NCBI GenBank assembly: GCA_045863295.1
Contig: BTWA01000039.1
Coordinates: 1-57,193, forward strand
Length of the DNA stretch: 57,193 bases
DNA from: Candidatus Hydrogenedentota bacterium
GTDB lineage: Bacteria; Hydrogenedentota; Hydrogenedentia; Hydrogenedentales; SLHB01
Reading direction: 5' to 3'
Shown piece after piece: positions 36,001 through 48,000 of this stretch. Within the stretch, counting starts at the first letter, position 1. The number at the start of each line of letters is the position of its first letter. Position numbers: made by a program.

Positions 36001-39000
36001 ATGCGATTCAACACGCCTAGAAAGGCAGCGCCCCAGGCCAGGAAGGCAGCATAAATCGTAACAGTGGGAATTGCGTCCAAATGTGGCACGGGAATCAACG
36101 CGCTCAGACGCCACGAGCATGCCGTGTACATGCCCAGCGGGAAGACCATGCTCCAATAGGCGGGATCGTAGACAATGGGAACTCGCTGAGCCACATGCCG
36201 CCATACACCGAGAACAATGAGAAACGGAATCCACCATGTCGCCGTTGCCCAGAAGACGAGTGTCGCACCGGTAATAAACTCGCGCAGGCCCGCCAGGAGA
36301 GGCGACCTATCTGCGGCGGCCAGGAGCACGCACCCGCCGAGGGTGGAAATGGCCATGGCACCCATGTTTATCCAATACGGCGGCAGTACGTCTTCCCGCG
36401 CCATCGGAAAGAAGGAGTATCGATAAAAGATCAGCGAAATCAACCAGATATAGAGCATACCGGCTGCCAGCCACAAGTTCAGTGCAACAAAAAGTACAAA
36501 TTCGGACCAAGTGGCAAAATCATCGGCGAGCAGCGCGGCAAGGATCGCCACTGCCTGTGTCGCTACTACCAACACGAGCCACCCGCCATGGATACTGTGC
36601 GCGATATCCGGCTTGTTCGGCGAAAGCGTGAGGAATCCGAGCACGGCGTACAGTAAAGCACACCACAGCACAGCCCCCGCCGCCAAGAACACCATGGCAA
36701 TACTGTGCGACCCGAAGATGATCAGTGTCTGGTTCCCAAGAATGCAAGTACCCGCCACCAGCGTCATGAAGCCCACGGCGCGCCGCGGGTCTTGTAAATC
36801 ACCTAGTATCGCCCGCGGGAAATAAGCGACTCGAGCCGTATAGAGAATACAGAGCACGGCGGCAAAGACGTAGTTGCCCCCCCCCAGCACCCAGGCACAG
36901 CGTTCGAACCCAGTGAAGTGAGCTGCGATGGCCACGATACCCGTGGCCATCACCATCGCAAAATATGCGGGATGTAACGATCTGACTAACGCCGCGACTT
37001 GCTCTATGGGCGCGGCTCCGTGCTCGCTTGAGCGTTCCGTGGCAGTCATGTCTGTTCCTTCTTTACCTCGGCTAGACCGACTGGATCCGTGTTACCAGGC
37101 AATGTCCATCTATATGGCCAGTGTAACGTGACGTACCCTATGCATCCCCCCTTGGCGGCAAGACTTCGGGCTAGCGGGAATTCGCCATTTAACCTGATCG
37201 CTTTTCTGAATCCTCCACGATCAGGGTTACTCAACAGTCCCTGCGTTGACGTCCTTTCGCCGCGCTAAGCGCTTCGAAACCGTGGAGCAGATTCTGGAGG
37301 CCCCACAGGCCGGCGACTGTGGCTAGCCCCACCATGACCACGTGAAACCAGCTCCGCTTCAAGTTGATGAAAAAGAGTGCCCACGGGTCGCCGTGATTGG
37401 GGTCGGTGGGCAGCGTACCCTCCAGGTACTCGCGGACATCCGGGAGCCCGTCACCGTCCAGATCGCTTTGCGGTCCCAAGGCATCCGCAAGCTTTGCGGG
37501 ATCCTGACGGATCTGGAGAAACTGCTGCTTGCCCAGTACTTGAATGATGTGATTTCCGAACTCATTGAGGATTGGGCTTTCCACCTCTTCACCCGGCGTG
37601 AAGGCCGCCCGGGCCTTGCCGAGGGCCTCCATCTGAAGTGGCGTCAGGCTCCCGATCTGTCCCGGCTTGAGGCCCTCCGGACCGTCGGCATGGGCGTGGC
37701 ACATGGCGCAGTTCACATTACGGCCCGACTGGGTTTCGATAAAGGTCTGGAATTCCGGATAGGCCCAAGCGGCGCTGCCAAGCGCCACGAAGGCCACTGC
37801 CGCAACGGCGATACGCAGCTTCATTGGTGGGCTCCTTTAAAGAACTCGTAGATCTGCTGGCCGAATACCGTCATGGCTACCAGATAAAAGGTGACGGCCA
37901 GGGCGATGTTGCGAAGGGTCTTCCTGCTCGTGCCTCGAAAGATCCACGGGACCCCGAGCAGGACGGCCATCGCGATTCCGGAAAGGATCATGATCATCCA
38001 GAAAGGCAGCAGCTCCAGCGGATAGTAGACGAAGAAGAAATACCACTCCGGCTTTATCCCGTCGGGCGTGGAGCCTTGGGGGTCAAAGGGCTCGAAGAGT
38101 GGATAGGAGAAGAAGGCCTCGAAGGGGAGACAGAGGGCCACGACGAAGAGAACGAAGAAGACCAGGCCCCAGATGGAGAAATCCTTCAGGGCGAAAATCG
38201 GGAAGAACTTCTCTGTCTTGCCTGTGGGCTTGTCCACGCCCTTGCTCATGCCATGGATCTGCACCATGAAAAGATGCTGGCCCAGGACCGCAAAGACCGC
38301 CAGCGGCAGCACCACGACGTGTAGTGCATAGAAGCGGCTCAACGTGGCCTGGCCCACCGCCGCCTCGCCTTGGATCAACTCCTTGATCTGGCGCGGAATA
38401 TCGGCAAGCGTGCCGGGGAGATAGGCCCCGGCCTCTTCGACGGACTGAAGCCCCACCTTGGTGGCGTTGACCGCGATCTGGTGCCAGGGCAGGAGGTAGC
38501 CGGTAAATCCGAAGCCGAAGGTTATCAGCAGCAGGAGTACGCCCGAGACCCAGGTGATCTCTCGCGGCTTCTCGAAGGCTTTCATGGCAAAGGCCGTGAT
38601 CAGGTGGGTTAGCACGCAGAAGATCATCGCCGAGGACGACCAAGTGTGAAGGTTGCGGATAAGAGCGCCCCCGCCCACGTGAAAGGTGATTAATTCCACC
38701 GAGGCGTGTGCGTCAGCGACCGTAGGCTGGTAGTAAAATAGTAGCAACAACCCGGTAACAAGTTGGATGCTGAAACAAAAGAGGGCCAGGCCGCCGAAGT
38801 AATAACCCCAGCTCATCCGGTGGACGGGCACTTCCTTTTTCTGAAAAAGGGTTTCAAAACTGAGCTTTTCCAGCGGAAAACGCTCATGAAGCCAGTCCGT
38901 TGCCTGTTGGACCCGGTCTTGCGCGCGCATCAAGCCATCTCCTCAAACTGTTTGGCGATGTAAACGCCGTAGCCGCCTGCTTGCGCAAGATCGACCTCGC

Positions 39001-45000: not shown

Positions 45001-48000
45001 ATGGAACTCTCGGAGGATCACGTGGTTTACCGCCATCCAGAAGGCGGTGTCGCTACCCTGGTTGATGGGGATCCATTCGTCCGCAATCTTGGAGGTCTGA
45101 CTGAAGTCCGGCGAAAAGACAACGACCTTGGCTCCCCGGTGGCGCGCTTCCACCAGGAAGTGCGCATCGGGCGTGCGGGTCATGAGCACGTTGGAGCCGA
45201 CGGTGGCGATAAACTTCGAGTGGAACCAGTCGGCGCTTTCCGCCACGTCGGTCTGCTCGCCCCAGACCTCGGGGGAAGCGGGCGGCAGATCGCAGTACCA
45301 GTCGTAGAAGCTGAGGGCGATGCCACCCATGAGCTGGAGAAAGCGCGCGCCTGCCGCATAGCTGATCATGCTCATGGCGGGAATAGGCGAGAAGCCGACG
45401 AGGCGATCAGGGCCGTATTTCTGGACGGTGTAGATGTTGGAGGCGGCGATGAGCTCCTGGGCTTCGCGCCAGGAAACGCGCTGGAAGCCGCCCTTGCCTC
45501 GGGCCTGCTGGTAGCGCTTGCGGCGCTCGGGATTGGCCGTGATCGATTCCCACGCCGCGACCGGATCGTTCCCGTGCTCCGCTTTGGCCTCGCGCCAGAG
45601 ATCGAGGAGCGCCCCGCGCATATACGGATACTTGATCCGCAGGGGCGAGTAGATGTACCACGAGGTGGAAATGCCGCGCTGGCAACCCCGGGGCTCGTGG
45701 TTCGGAATCGCCTTGTCGATGGTGGGATAGTCGAGGGCCTGCATTTCCCAGGTCACGATGCCCTGCTTCACATAGACGTTCCAACTGCACGATCCAGTGC
45801 AGTTGACCCCGTGGGTCGTACGCACCACCTTATCGTGGGCCCAGCGGTTCCGGTAAAACTCCTCCCAGTCCCGCTGTTCCGGCGCAAATAAGTCCAGAAT
45901 CCAACCCATCAGTTCTTCCTCCTGCGATTTGCGCCCAAGTCGCTGCGGCGGCAGGCGTCCGCCACCATGCGCGCCCGCGTTCCCCCGACCCGTTTCGCCG
46001 TGGATTTGCCCAGGAACACCAGCGCCAGGGCCGTGCCGCCGATGCCAGCCAGATGCATCGGATGACTGGCTGGGGCCGCGGGGTTCTTGGAGACTTCTTC
46101 GAGGTACTTCACAATGTGGAGTGCCTCCTGCTTGTTCACCGGATGGGGGGTATAGATTGCCCGCATGACGGGAAAGCCGGGCGATTCGGTGGTCGCCTGC
46201 AGTGGCTGCGCACCGAGACGGGTAAAGGAGTCCTCCAGCGATGCCGCTAGGTTGCCGCCGCGACCTTCCGCCTGGTGGCATGCGGCGCAAGCGGCCCCCC
46301 CATTGGCAAAAGCCTTGCGCCCGGTAAAGAGGGCACGGCCCATTTCAGCATTTGGGGGCGCCATGGAGGCGGCTTCCCGCAACTGCACCTGCTGGCGGTG
46401 CGCATCGAGGCGGGCCGCCGCGTCCGGTGCGAGCAGGAAGTCGGCCAGCATCGCCAAATCGCCTTCGCTGATGGGCCCTACGTTCTTCTCCATCCGCTTA
46501 ATGCCGTCTAGGACCGTCTGCCGCGGATAAGTGGCTGCGTTCTTGAGGTCTGGACCGGTCAATACGCCACCGCCGATGGTGTGGCACCCCATACACTTCA
46601 TCGCATAGGCTGCCGCTGCAGTATCCGCTTGGGGCGCTGCCTCGGCCGGGGCCGCTGCGGCAAGCGTGGGCGCGCTTTCCGCAAGGGCATCGGGTATCGC
46701 CTGGGTCGATACCCACGGGGCCAATAACCCTGTCCCAAGGAAACAGGCCGTCACAAACTGCCCGCGCCCCCACGCGAAGGTTGTCTTACCCAATAAAAAG
46801 CTCATACTTTCTGCTCCCGTCGAGTGCATCCACTCCGGAATTTTGGGGTAATTAATTGTGGATAGATTTATCCACTATATTCCGGAGTAAATTATCCACT
46901 ATTGCGTGTTGGCAAGTCAAGAGGATTCTCTCGGTTCCTAAAAGCGCAGTTTGACAGAAACTAGAGCGCCCGGGAGAGGCGGGGATCTAACCGAATTTGC
47001 TATTGGGACTCGAGTGTCTTGTGTTCTTGGAGCATCTTACGCTCTAAGGTCAGGGCGGCCAGCTTATCGAGGGTGGTATGGGACAGATTCTCGAGGAGGT
47101 TTATCTTCGAGATTACCCATATATCATGAAGGGGACAGGGGTTGGCCTTGCCGCACTCGGCGAAACCAAGCACGCAATGGTCATATGTATCCTCCCCCTC
47201 AACGGCCTGAATTACTTCTAGCAGGGTGATCTCGCCGGGATCTCGGGTGAGCGAGTACCCCCCGCCCGGTCCCCGATGAGCTTCGAGAAATCCCCCCTGT
47301 ACGAGGGCTTGGAATATCTTGCGTGTAAAATACTCTGGAATTTCCGCCTTTTCGCAGATCTCACGGGCCTGAAAGCGGTCTCTCGATTTGTCTGAAACCA
47401 CGAAGGTAAGCGCGCGTAGCGCATATTGGCAGCCTTTGGAATAGAGCTTGAACATATTATGGATATTTTCCTCCACTTAAGTATCGGGCACGGCGAAACG
47501 TTTGTCAAGACCCCGCCTTGGATAGCGCCAAAGACTTACGCACCGCTCGCGCTACGCTGGGGTTGTATTTGTGGATAAAATAGTCCACAATATAGGCGCT
47601 ACCAAGGAGAGAATCCATGGGCACAAATCTACCGACTCGCCATACGATGGCCGAACGGGCACTGGAGCGGCCGCCCCGATCACGCTACTTTGGACGTTCG
47701 GGAATCGATTTCAACTGTGGCGGCAAGAAGGCTCTGAAAGCGGCCCGTGACCGGAGGGCATTACCCTCTTCCCGAGCGTATGGACGGCTGGCGGCCCTAA
47801 GTATCGAGGCGGCACAGAATCAGGAGCTGGATGTTAGCACCGAGACCCTCGCGAACAGGATTGACCGCATTCTCGATGCGCACGACCAGTACCTGCCGCA
47901 GGACCTTCTCCGTTGGGGTGCAATGCTACGGAAAGTTAAGTATTTCCTTTCTGGATTCCCGGGCCCTCCGCACATAGGTTGTCCCGCTCTCGCCTCACTG

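Follow-up and report, generated by a model that had tools for sequence, protein, structure and literature searches.

The window that we analysed, i.e. the whole 57,193-nt stretch of contig BTWA01000039.1 of a Candidatus Hydrogenedentota bacterium, contains seven genes on the minus strand that form a tightly packed operon in the order narC-narG-narH-narJ-narI::Rieske-cytochrome b-cytochrome c. The first gene (45909..46805, minus strand) encodes a narC-like, membrane-anchored periplasmic dihaem cytochrome c of 298 aa, with the motifs CMGCH and CAACH, a C-terminal TM helix and matches to Pfam Cytochrome_CBB3 and Cytochrom_C. Its stop codon overlaps the start of narG (TGATG). The latter (42292..45909, minus strand, ATG at 45909) encodes the catalytic, cytoplasm-facing molybdopterin subunit of 1205 aa, which scored 1542 bits against TIGR01580 (cut-off 1084); the N-terminus of NarG (MGWILDLF...) carries no twin-arginine signal and its FS0 motif HGVNCTGSC (H-x3-C-x3-C) begins at residue 33. 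The iron-sulfur subunit is encoded by narH (40784..42298, minus strand; TIGR01660 642.6 bits, cut-off 524; Pfam Fer4_11 and Nitr_red_bet_C) and the assembly chaperone by narJ (40242..40838, minus strand), with 40.1 bits for Pfam Nitrate_red_del and 54.6 bits for TIGR00684, slightly below the cut-off of 59.35. The Pfam and NCBIfam matches and the N-terminus of NarG thus confirm an operon with a dihaem cytochrome c, a Tat-less NarG, NarH and NarJ, as given in the initial annotation.

Downstream from the fusion gene, and overlapping it by 4 bases, there is a dedicated, long cytochrome b of 370 aa (37821..38933, minus strand), made of a b6-like N-terminal part and a subunit-IV-like part (Pfam Cytochrome_B, Cytochrom_B_N_2 and Cytochrom_B_C). 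Its PEWY motif and H96, H110, H205 and H220, invariant in 23 sequences, agree with the bc type assigned to it before. The last gene (37231..37824, minus strand) encodes a monohaem cytochrome c of 197 aa with a signal peptide, CAMCH at 39-43, an Asp-rich TSP3-like repeat and a C-terminal TM helix; 21 sequences of it were aligned. It had been described as a membrane-anchored protein of no known family and, in fact, it had no Pfam or NCBIfam match, nor did its AF2 model (pLDDT 91.1) have any Foldseek match at E<=0.001. We propose it as an analogue of cytochrome c1.

Upstream from the operon, an Rrf2-family protein (47000..47476, minus strand; Pfam Rrf2 99.8 bits) is its possible regulator. At 181 bases downstream lies a SLAC1/TehA-family anion channel (35949..37049, minus strand; Pfam SLAC1 149 bits), whose homologues adjoin narI in loci L058 and L067; there is no narK in the cluster, and we consider the SLAC1/TehA-family protein as a candidate nitrate/nitrite channel. 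The separate, ordinary Rieske/cytochrome b pair mentioned in the initial annotation was found elsewhere in the genome, at C1:127084-128458. Since MenD reached 423.6 bits (cut-off 244.2), with scores of Ubi hydroxylases below their cut-off, the organism was considered a menaquinone organism.

The NarI-Rieske fusion protein

The fusion gene (38930..40249, minus strand) is a single open frame of 439 aa that contains both Pfam domains, precisely Nitrate_red_gam at residues 4-218 (E 1.1e-62, 212 bits) and Rieske at residues 309-389 (E 9.8e-7, 29 bits, cut-off 20.3). The NCBIfam narI profile TIGR00351 (225 positions, cut-off 105.55) scored 138 bits; its positions 3-217 matched residues 1-212, which make up 48% of the fusion protein. 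The NarI domain (residues 4-218; 39596..40240, minus strand) has five TM helices and the haem ligands H54, H64, H182 and H200. It is followed by an internal Tat-type motif, D-S-R239-R240-Y-F-L-R, with TM helix 6 (residues 243-261) immediately after it (39465..39541, minus strand), and then by the Rieske [2Fe-2S] head (residues ~306-439; 38933..39334, minus strand), with CTHLGC at 349-354 and CPCH at 367-370. A complete NarI and a complete Rieske protein on one ORF, with a twin-arginine/TM anchor inside, had been reported previously and was reproduced here. When we aligned 18 homologues (51-76% identical), the four His, R239, R240 and both cluster motifs were invariant, the same set as reported before.

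A search with the fusion protein gave 681 proteins at E<=1e-3 and, among the matches listed, 120/120 carry PF02665 and PF00355 in 433-479 aa, the same numbers as in the earlier search. Since the junction is also bridged by an independent metagenome contig of another study (run X7, record 26; 38956-39655, 0 differences), the fusion is not an assembly artefact, and we regard it as real and conserved. Our literature search found no description of a NarI-Rieske fusion. It is the sole NarI of a genome that is 96% complete, so that NarGH must use it.

The AF2 model of the fusion had a mean pLDDT of 76.4, with values <50 at residues 201-241, i.e. a 40-residue low-confidence linker, and its Foldseek matches were 1q16_C (E 1.5e-10, TMt 0.78) and Rieske proteins. 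The K/R-rich loops are at 24-54, 108-124 and 202-242, positions that place the Rieske domain outside. It is strongly supported by these sequence features that the NarI part spans the membrane by five helices from an outer N-terminus to an inner C-terminus, and that the Rieske head is periplasmic. The hydropathy of TM6 is 1.55, versus 2.07-2.55 for TM1-5; an RR motif and a weakly hydrophobic helix that moves a folded Rieske domain out point to insertion by Sec/YidC and then Tat. As described in passages of PMC5449189, actinobacterial polytopic Rieske proteins and other dual Sec-Tat membrane proteins likewise have the RR just before a weakly hydrophobic last TM helix, which brings the cofactor domain outside, but they have 3 (or 5) TM helices and no NarI module; the passages searched do not mention a NarI-Rieske protein.

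Conservation, variants and the predicted cytochrome c contact

The operon order was held in every related locus that extended far enough. In the clade-A loci, cytochrome b came next in 18/18 that continued past the fusion, and cytochrome c was present in 14/14 that continued past cytochrome b. Among the 11 that extended upstream of narG, all had a NarC homologue and nine had an Rrf2 homologue upstream of narC. These counts strongly support, at the level of sequence, that the fusion has invariable partners in cytochrome b and in the cytochrome c of 197 aa, and a constant one in NarC.

A scan of metagenome contigs for relatives returned at least 569 stretches, a number which the initial annotation had given for stretches encoding a relative and which is not a count of fusions. 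In fact, the best 80 loci, which we classified, comprised 19 with a fused ORF, 9 with a match to the Rieske part only and 52 with a plain NarI. As regards the phyla listed earlier, Hydrogenedentes, Sumerlaeota, Verrucomicrobiota, Deltaproteobacteria and Obscuribacterales were named among the listed homologues, and the others were not confirmed. The NarI of the fusion falls into a subfamily associated with NarC, whose fused and unfused members are intermingled; unfused NarI forms are nested inside the fused clade, hence the module is dispensable, which counts against the reading preferred below.

In a second architecture, either a NarI::Rieske fusion (3 loci) or adjacent NarI and Rieske genes (2 loci) are followed by a cytochrome b::cytochrome c fusion; judging from its sequences, this is an independent joining of the same three functions. 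The Rieske/cytochrome b/cytochrome c module also stands alone (L027, L028, L035, L036 and L043), accompanied by further c cytochromes, and the nar-linked and stand-alone cytochromes b differ at only 1 diagnostic column (S288/A), so that we considered the module a complete, unmodified quinol:cytochrome c unit. Other NarI relatives are fused to periplasmic c haems, as cytochrome c::NarI (P0168, P0173) or NarI::multihaem c (P0211), and cytochrome c::Rieske fusions occur as well (P0137, L027). One variant (L026) keeps NarI::Rieske, cytochrome b and cytochrome c, with narGHJ absent within 10 kb upstream and a NarI part whose conserved cytoplasmic tail is lost; it also counts against that reading.

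We predicted the complex of the 197-aa cytochrome c with cytochrome b and the Rieske anchor, scoring only the placement of the cytochrome c, so that the result does not bear on the NarC-NarI pair or on distances between haems. The ipSAE was 0.67 (best control 0.01), a mark reached by 116/157 solved complexes and 2/215 mismatched pairs in a calibration that is only rough here, as own alignments and three chains were used. Contacts agreed >=95% between runs, with a partner pLDDT of 76. The unclassified cytochrome c is thus predicted to sit beside cytochrome b and the Rieske anchor, its C-terminal helix facing cytochrome b 244-292 and Rieske anchor 237-263. The covalent fusion, the synteny, the second architecture and this prediction support the "hard-wired" link between nitrate reductase and bc module that had been claimed for the locus.

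Comparison with known nitrate reductases

E. coli NarGHI (PDB 1Q16) shares the NarI fold, the four haem His, the cytoplasmic NarGH and NarJ with this system, but has neither NarC nor a fusion; in the fused NarI the loop of the quinol-site Lys86 is two residues shorter and periplasmic loop 4-5 has a different conserved motif (RWGxxW...PYxWSL). A haloarchaeal cluster of Rieske/cytochrome b and Nar genes was reportedly described by Martinez-Espinosa in 2007. In the haloarchaeal NarB/NarC and pNarGH cluster, according to parts of PMC3509893, a dedicated Rieske/cytochrome b is also proposed to feed Nar, whereas its NarG works on the outside after export, NarI is missing and the Rieske is a separate protein. 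The operon of the heterotetrameric nitrate reductase of Thermus thermophilus, NarCGHJI(KT), likewise begins with a membrane-bound periplasmic dihaem cytochrome c and has cytoplasm-facing NarGH. Two-hybrid assays showed that its NarC interacts with NarI, and this NarC carries electrons, presumably between Nar and its partners in the periplasm, which is an experimental precedent for the reading preferred below; but its NarI is plain and the operon is without Rieske, cytochrome b and second cytochrome c (PMC7694296).

For Streptomyces coelicolor Nar1, PMC7931247 reports that the cytoplasm-facing NarGHI needs a Rieske/cytochrome b complex in vivo and that the two co-purify; Nar1 and bcc-aa3 are, however, separate proteins from separate operons, associated non-covalently, and the role of the association is not settled there. 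In Caldithrix abyssi, the nitrate reductase locus has a dedicated Rieske/cytochrome b pair and no c1-type cytochrome, according to parts of PMC5317091, but the reductase is a periplasmic Nap, without NarI or fusion.

Proposed electron flow through the complex

Our preferred reading, to which we give a probability of about 0.45, is as follows: electrons from menaquinol would reach NarGH via a Q cycle of the bc module, the c haems and the NarI haems, with doubled charge separation. Precisely, the seven gene products would form one membrane supercomplex, in which the cytoplasm-facing NarGH sits on NarI, and NarI has a covalent link to a complete quinol oxidase made of Rieske and cytochrome b. At its Qo site, the cytochrome b/Rieske module would oxidise menaquinol, and the Rieske cluster would hand the high-potential electron to the monohaem cytochrome c (c1 analogue), from where it would pass to the dihaem NarC and to the outer NarI haem; it would then cross the membrane via the two NarI haems and reach NarH and NarG, where nitrate would be reduced in the cytoplasm. 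The charge separation of the Q cycle would add to the redox loop of Nar, giving ~4 charges per nitrate versus 2, an excess that would be affordable because the donor is menaquinol. As in the initial annotation, the direction of electron flow is inferred, and so is the energetic gain. It counts against this reading that, by parsimony with Thermus, the fused NarI may oxidise menaquinol directly: its region that corresponds to K86 of E. coli is two residues shorter, but so is that of unfused NarC-type NarI, the canonical NarI sequences sampled do not have Lys at that position either, and the invariant Glu88 (E88) could be part of a NarI quinol site. Moreover, with potentials like those of E. coli, transfer from the c haems to the outer NarI haem would be uphill, and it runs against the membrane potential, which also counts against the reading.

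It is less likely that the complex is a branch point, with NarI keeping its menaquinol site and feeding NarGH, like its counterparts in E. coli and Thermus. The tethered Rieske/cytochrome b and the c haems (the 197-aa cytochrome and NarC) would then supply other acceptors in the periplasm or the membrane, e.g. oxidases, with electrons that come either from quinol or, through NarC, from NarI, and the fusion would serve co-assembly and co-regulation only. In favour of a branch point, the periplasmic face of the fused NarI does not differ from that of unfused NarC-type NarI, which shares the invariant E88. Consistent with such outflow are the further c cytochromes of the stand-alone module, the three haem-copper oxidase family genes of this genome and the proposal that Thermus NarC takes the place of complex III and sends electrons of Nar outward to Nir and Nor, in an organism whose bc complex is repressed in nitrate respiration (passages of PMC7694296). 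However, the separate Rieske/cytochrome b pair is already there for other acceptors. NirK was found in 0/135 Hydrogenedentota genomes, NirS in 1/135 and either of them in 0/21 fusion-bearing genomes of the phylum, and NrfA adjoins its own NrfH in this genome; we counted it for the preferred reading that periplasmic nitrite reductases need no feeding by the complex. A branch point would also leave unexplained that two independent architectures have the module joined to NarI and placed within the nar operon.

We consider it improbable that the Rieske/cytochrome b part only stabilises or positions Nar, with no electron exchange. The authors on Streptomyces Nar1 allow such a stabilising role for the bcc-aa3 supercomplex (PMC7931247), and maturation and membrane attachment of Thermus NarG require NarC (passages of PMC7694296), but the ligands of the redox cofactors are invariant in all parts, and the fact that NarI relatives were fused to c haems repeatedly and independently favours electron exchange. 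Very improbable, as judged from NarG and NrfHA, is a reverse operation as a Nitrobacter-type NXR, in which nitrite would be oxidised in the cytoplasm, electrons would leave via NarI and NarC to c cytochromes, and the bc module would run backwards, so that quinone is reduced for reverse electron transport. In Nitrobacter, a narC-type cluster with much similarity works as a nitrite oxidoreductase (passages of PMC7694296) and a second, periplasmic NXR/pNar-like enzyme is encoded next door, but NarG scored far above the narG equivalog cut-off and the hosts have NrfHA, for nitrite ammonification. A shortcut by bifurcation, in which haem bH of cytochrome b would give the low-potential electron of quinol oxidation sideways to the inner haem of NarI, for nitrate reduction, with no quinone reduction at Qi, might be suggested by two dihaem proteins tethered in one membrane plane, yet it is equally far-fetched, as the single diagnostic column implies no nar-specific N-side change in cytochrome b and the tether is the 40-residue low-confidence linker.

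If the preferred reading is true, it suggests that nitrate respiration would conserve more energy in these uncultured bacteria than it does with the textbook enzyme.

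The nar operon and its neighbourhood

Seven closely spaced genes run on the minus strand from 46805 to 37231, with overlaps between most neighbours. The first, a narC-like gene (45909-46805, minus strand), encodes a protein that begins with a signal-like stretch, carries two CxxCH motifs and ends in a TM helix. It is joined through a TGATG overlap to narG (42292-45909, minus strand; TIGR01580, 1542 bits, cut-off 1084), whose start we set at the ATG at 45909, the listed 1332-aa ORF being an over-extension. Inspection of the sequence found no twin-arginine signal at the NarG N-terminus and we therefore considered the enzyme as facing the cytoplasm. 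On the same strand follow narH (TIGR01660, 642.6 bits) and narJ, the latter overlapping by 8 bases the gene of the NarI-Rieske fusion (38930-40249, minus strand, 439 aa). Overlaps of 4 bases each then link the fusion gene to a cytochrome b gene (37821-38933, minus strand, 370 aa), and this to a gene for a monohaem cytochrome c (37231-37824, minus strand, 197 aa).

The promoter and terminator scan was at chance level: 4.1 promoter-like and 12.1 terminator-like sites were expected, and 3 and 13 were found. Between the promoter-like site at 46920-46891 and narC there are two copies of the motif ATAGTGGATAA, spaced by 24 bases (46858-46902, minus strand); the second copy lies within the palindrome GTGGATA-AATC-TATCCAC, a candidate operator, perhaps for the upstream Rrf2 regulator.

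Directly downstream of the operon are the genes of a SLAC1/TehA-family anion channel and of a cytochrome P450 (34732-37049, minus strand). The same pair adjoins canonical narI in one related locus (L067), a SLAC homologue follows narI in another (L058), and a second SLAC-like and P450-like pair is found elsewhere in the genome (contig C23, 84687-87006), by a ScdA-like gene and a 774-aa haem-copper oxidase family gene which is qNor-like by length. The channel may stand in for NarK in nitrate/nitrite transport, and the P450, which has a weak match to TxtE, may be linked to N-oxides. ScdA/hemerythrin, a protein for the repair of iron centres, and MoaA are also encoded near the nar cluster (30868-31788, plus strand, and 33139-34200, minus strand), and MoaA homologues occur near the operon in four related loci (L001, L002, L021, L022).

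Divergently from the nar operon, a second type-II DMSO-reductase cluster occupies 47979-54792 (plus strand). Its alpha subunit (1149 aa) has a clear Tat signal, VSRRKFLQ, and scores below the cut-off of its family model (327.7 against 984.75 bits), its gamma subunit (550 aa) has two cytochrome c domains and an EB_dh haem b domain, and the cluster ends with a small ORF followed by a 422-aa beta subunit. Judged from these sequences, it is a candidate periplasmic NXR/pNar-like enzyme beside the cytoplasmic Nar. At the other end of the window, a defence-like run of genes (436-15910, minus strand) encodes a DUF1156 methyltransferase of 1093 aa, a caspase-domain protein, a UvrD helicase, an SMC/AAA_15-like ATPase of 902 aa, a metallophosphoesterase and an HTH-SNF2 helicase with NOV_C of 1203 aa.

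The NarI-Rieske protein

The N-terminal half of the fusion matches PF02665 (Nitrate_red_gam) over residues 4-218 (E 1.1e-62, 212 bits, cut-off 22.9) and the TIGR00351 narI equivalog (138 bits, cut-off 105.55). E. coli NarI, whose structure is solved, aligns to residues 2-214 (E 5e-27), and in this alignment its haem ligands H56, H66, H187 and H205 correspond to H54, H64, H182 and H200. At the place of the E. coli quinol-site residue Lys86 there is a two-residue deletion, and NarI of the window has no Lys/Arg there. We rejected this loss as a proof that NarI has stopped oxidising quinol, because unfused NarI of the NarC type has the same deletion; moreover, Lys86 is not general, as the canonical NarI sampled from the loci carry Tyr-His at this place.

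In the C-terminal half, the Pfam Rieske domain covers residues 309-389 (E 9.8e-7, 29 bits, cut-off 20.3), and the NCBIfam bc/b6f models all score under cut-off (QcrA 41.2 against 275, PetC 30.9 against 250, Rieske_proteo 27.5 against 97.4). The closest solved relatives of this part are the Thermus Rieske protein (1NYK, 3.8e-7) and bc/b6f Rieske proteins, and it can be aligned with Thermus, Kuenenia, b6f and bc1 Rieske proteins. Its motifs CTHLGC (349-354) and CPCH (367-370) include both disulfide cysteines of the bc-type proteins and, together with the four histidines of the NarI half and R239-R240, are invariant in 18 homologues that are 51-76% identical.

The initial annotation had placed NarI and Rieske on one ORF and had reported a separate Rieske/cytochrome b pair in the genome, and both points held: the two Pfam domains are present here and in all the 120 homologues listed out of 681 (433-479 aa in length), and the second pair is on contig 1. 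Identical pieces of the locus were found in contigs of three sludge metagenome runs from three other studies, and a 700-base contig of one sequencing run (X7, record 26; 38956-39655, no differences) spans NarI helix 5, the linker and the RR motif and reaches into the Rieske head. As to expression, the one RNA run compared (X16) has identical contigs over narG and narH only and none over the fusion, and since DNA was possibly in the sample it counts neither for nor against expression. The fusion is the sole PF02665 match in this genome (6.3 Mb, 96% complete), hence NarGH must use it.

Hydropathy gives six TM helices, five of them in the NarI part, and the loops rich in K/R are 24-54, 108-124 and 202-242, so that the N-terminus is placed outside, as in E. 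coli NarI. That the NarI tail would be inside, with helix 6 (243-261) taking the Rieske head to the periplasm, is strongly supported by sequence. Directly before helix 6 is DSRRYFLRG, in which D-S-R-R-Y-F-L-R matches the Tat consensus S/T-R-R-x-F-L-K, and helix 6 is the least hydrophobic of the six (1.55, against 2.07-2.55 for TM1-5). An RR motif, a weakly hydrophobic last helix and a cofactor domain are likewise found in the actinobacterial dual Sec-Tat Rieske proteins, as described in PMC5449189, which in the passages searched mentions no NarI-Rieske protein. We predict that insertion of helix 6 would be Tat-dependent. The AF2 model of the fusion (mean pLDDT 76.4) is confident for the NarI bundle and for the Rieske head, with low confidence in the linker 201-241; Foldseek matched this model to 1q16_C (E 1.5e-10, TMt 0.78) and to Rieske proteins.

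Related loci and the cytochrome partners

We compared 6 loci from species genomes, all of Hydrogenedentota, and the best 80 of at least 569 from metagenomes, with their ORFs checked. The 569 relatives, as counted in the initial annotation, cannot be read as a number of fusions, since the best 80 divide into 19 with a fused ORF, 9 with the Rieske part alone and 52 with plain NarI. Twenty loci (clade A) have the same kind of fusion, with NarI parts that are 43-90% identical. The cytochrome b gene is next in all 18 clade-A loci extending beyond the fusion gene, the gene for the 197-aa cytochrome c is next in all 14 extending beyond cytochrome b, and a NarC homologue precedes narG in all 11 reaching that far, with an Rrf2 regulator upstream in 9 of these 11. 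Counts over the phylum are descriptive, as related genomes are not independent: the fusion alignment has a match in 28 of 135 Hydrogenedentota genomes, namely 21 with the fusion, 6 with unfused NarI only and 1 with a cut fragment, and two genomes have both NarI forms together.

A quick maximum-likelihood tree built from 72 NarI parts groups all fused forms with the unfused NarI from narC-narGHJI operons in a single clade (SH-aLRT 99), apart from canonical NarI and that of E. coli. Three traits of this clade are absent from canonical NarI, that is, the two-residue deletion at the Lys86 place, an invariant Glu88 starting helix 3 and a periplasmic loop RWG[AS]xW...PYxWSL. Three unfused forms (L029, L030, L034) nest among the fused ones and the starred branches of the tree force at least 3 state changes, therefore the module made of the Rieske protein, cytochrome b and cytochrome c was repeatedly gained or lost. 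It also exists in a stand-alone state, in four loci where NarI and NarGH are absent nearby (L028, L035, L036, L043), with Rieske proteins of 220-226 aa which are 48-51% identical to the Rieske part of the fusion. In L027 a NarC-like cytochrome c domain is attached to the Rieske protein instead.

A second architecture (clade B) has either a NarI-Rieske fusion of 403-447 aa by ORF call (L032, L033, L038) or a split form in which narI and Rieske are separate neighbouring genes encoding 239 aa and 181-183 aa (L037, L040), followed in both cases by a cytochrome b (480-486 aa) that ends in a cytochrome c domain. Within a library of 50%-identity representatives, NarI-Rieske accounts for 7 of the 20 proteins scanned. 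The others include two proteins of 474 and 478 aa in which a cytochrome c precedes NarI (P0168, P0173) and which, having the cytochrome N-terminal, would carry it in the periplasm, a NarI with C-terminal multihaem c3/c7 domains (P0211, 401 aa), a NarI fused to an MFS transporter (P0161, 644 aa) and a cytochrome c-Rieske protein (P0137, 433 aa). The fusions of NarI indicate that NarI-type dihaem anchors were joined to periplasmic redox partners several times.

As regards the partners, cytochrome b has the H-x13-H pair of helix B, the H-x14-H pair of helix D and the PEWY motif, and H96, H110, H205, H220 and P295-E-W-Y298 are invariant in 23 sequences; the Cys for haem ci was absent from it on inspection of the sequence. 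When 11-12 nar-linked sequences were compared with 4 stand-alone ones, the diagnostic columns were 1 in cytochrome b and 3 in cytochrome c, too few for a nar-specific adaptation of either protein, which we dropped. With just one diagnostic column separating nar-linked from stand-alone cytochrome b, the module resembles a quinol:cytochrome c oxidoreductase without modification.

In the 197-aa cytochrome c, a signal peptide is followed by CAMCH, by an Asp-rich repeat of the bacterial TSP3-like kind and by a C-terminal TM helix. Neither Pfam nor NCBIfam has a family that matches it, and neither a conserved Met nor a second His as sixth haem ligand is evident in its alignment. AF2 models the protein with confidence (pLDDT 91.1), yet a Foldseek search of the PDB found nothing at E<=0.001, and a wide VIA-align search with the whole model aligned no more than helix 145-197 at the C-terminus, with coiled coils (Z 5.9 at best). 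We also predicted a three-chain complex of the Rieske part (229-439), cytochrome b and, as partner, cytochrome c (22-197), each with an alignment that we built ourselves. The partner reached an ipSAE of 0.67, against 0.01 for the best control, with a calibration that is only rough for such a job; the mark is reached by 116 of 157 solved complexes and by 2 of 215 mismatched pairs. Three runs shared at least 95% of contacts, and the partner pLDDT was 76. In the predicted interface, helix 158-189 of cytochrome c lies between cytochrome b 244-292 and the Rieske anchor 237-263, which is the place of cytochrome c1 in bc1. This prediction supports a binding of cytochrome c to cytochrome b and the Rieske anchor.

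Proposed electron path, possible energy yield and nitrogen metabolism

These data strongly support that Nar is physically coupled to a full Rieske/cytochrome b/cytochrome c module, that the Rieske head is periplasmic and that NarC is always present. The pool quinone is likely menaquinone, because the profile search of the genome found MenD (423.6 bits, cut-off 244.2), did not find MqnA and gave no Ubi hydroxylases above cut-off. In the path that we propose, menaquinol would be oxidised at Qo via a Q cycle, and the high-potential electron would go from the Rieske centre to the monohaem c, to the dihaem NarC and to the outer NarI haem, and then through the inner haem to NarH and NarG, so that each electron to nitrate would in effect cross the membrane twice. 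With midpoint potentials of about -74 mV for menaquinone and about +420 mV for nitrate/nitrite, the span is about 0.49 V per electron, which would suffice to move two charges across the membrane at a potential of 150-180 mV. The usual Nar redox loop moves 2 charges per nitrate (PMC3475470), and with a Q cycle in series the yield would be about 4.

We give a probability of roughly 40% to the reading that this is an undescribed and widespread nitrate respiration, in which the Nar redox loop and a Q-cycle quinol oxidase are hard-wired in series and NarI works as a transmembrane wire fed by periplasmic c haems, not as a quinol oxidase, at twice the charge yield of textbook NarGHI. Its chief competitor is a branch-point complex with a NarI that goes on oxidising quinol. 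The fused NarI has the same periplasmic face as the unfused NarC-type NarI, thus the protein may have a quinol site of its own. Other points count against the serial path as well. The c haems may lie above the outer NarI haem in potential, and the module is dispensable in close relatives. Furthermore, one locus (L026, 7146-12944) encodes a 918-aa multihaem cytochrome c with several NarC-like repeats, a NarI-Rieske protein of 426 aa, a cytochrome b and a small cytochrome c with CAMCR, not CAMCH; its NarI part has lost the conserved C-terminal tail and no narGHJ was found within 10 kb upstream.

As to a role in nitrite reduction, PMC7694296 states that Thermus NarC, which binds NarI and carries electrons, has been proposed to feed a cytochrome-c-dependent nitrite reductase. 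In this genome NirK was not found and NirS had no convincing match, NrfA adjoins a tetrahaem NrfH-like gene, and there are three haem-copper oxidase family genes. Among the 135 Hydrogenedentota genomes, NirK was found in none, NirS in one (a genome with unfused NarI) and NrfA in 81, including 12 of the 21 fusion genomes. Gene content suggests that the bc module does not serve to feed such a nitrite reductase. The NosZ profile (PF18764) gave 0 of 135, with no signal from its control in any genome either, so this zero carries no weight.

The finding combines known kinds, Nar and Rieske/cytochrome b, in a new form. The dihaem membrane-anchored cytochrome c gene before narG, with two CxxCH and a C-terminal TM, is shared with the NarCGHJI of the Thermus type. 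Haloarchaeal pNar, in contrast, has a Tat-exported NarG and no NarI, whereas here NarG is without an RR signal and NarI is present. Rieske/cytochrome b genes are reported in nitrate reductase loci of haloarchaea (PMC3509893) and Caldithrix (PMC5317091), and Streptomyces Nar1 is described as requiring the bcc-aa3 supercomplex and co-purifying with it (PMC7931247). Searches of open-access full text turned up neither a NarI-Rieske fusion nor this operon. Dibrova et al. 2017 (PMC5600118) mention a cytochrome b clade, G', located 'in large conserved operons ... of an unknown function'; by their figure legend, the domains counted in the vicinity of some cytochrome b genes include NarJ, molybdopterin, 4Fe-4S and EB_dh, but not PF02665.

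These results concern both bioenergetics and nitrogen-cycle work. Bacterial Nar is held to draw its electrons directly from quinol, skipping the Rieske/cytochrome b complex (PMC3509893 and also the textbook view), and a fusion conserved in several phyla contradicts this bypass as a general rule. As database annotation calls the fusion 'nitrate reductase gamma subunit' only, the bc module is hidden from gene-centric nitrogen-cycle surveys. The 197-aa protein adds an unclassified c1-like cytochrome c with a confident model and no PDB match by Foldseek at E<=0.001, and the fusion would represent a new class of membrane protein requiring Sec and Tat for insertion. If the serial path is true, the fusion would be a natural 'Rosetta stone', evidence that the bcc dependence of Streptomyces Nar1 reflects real electron transfer, and nitrate respiration in widespread bacteria of wastewater, sediment and freshwater would conserve about twice the energy assumed in models.
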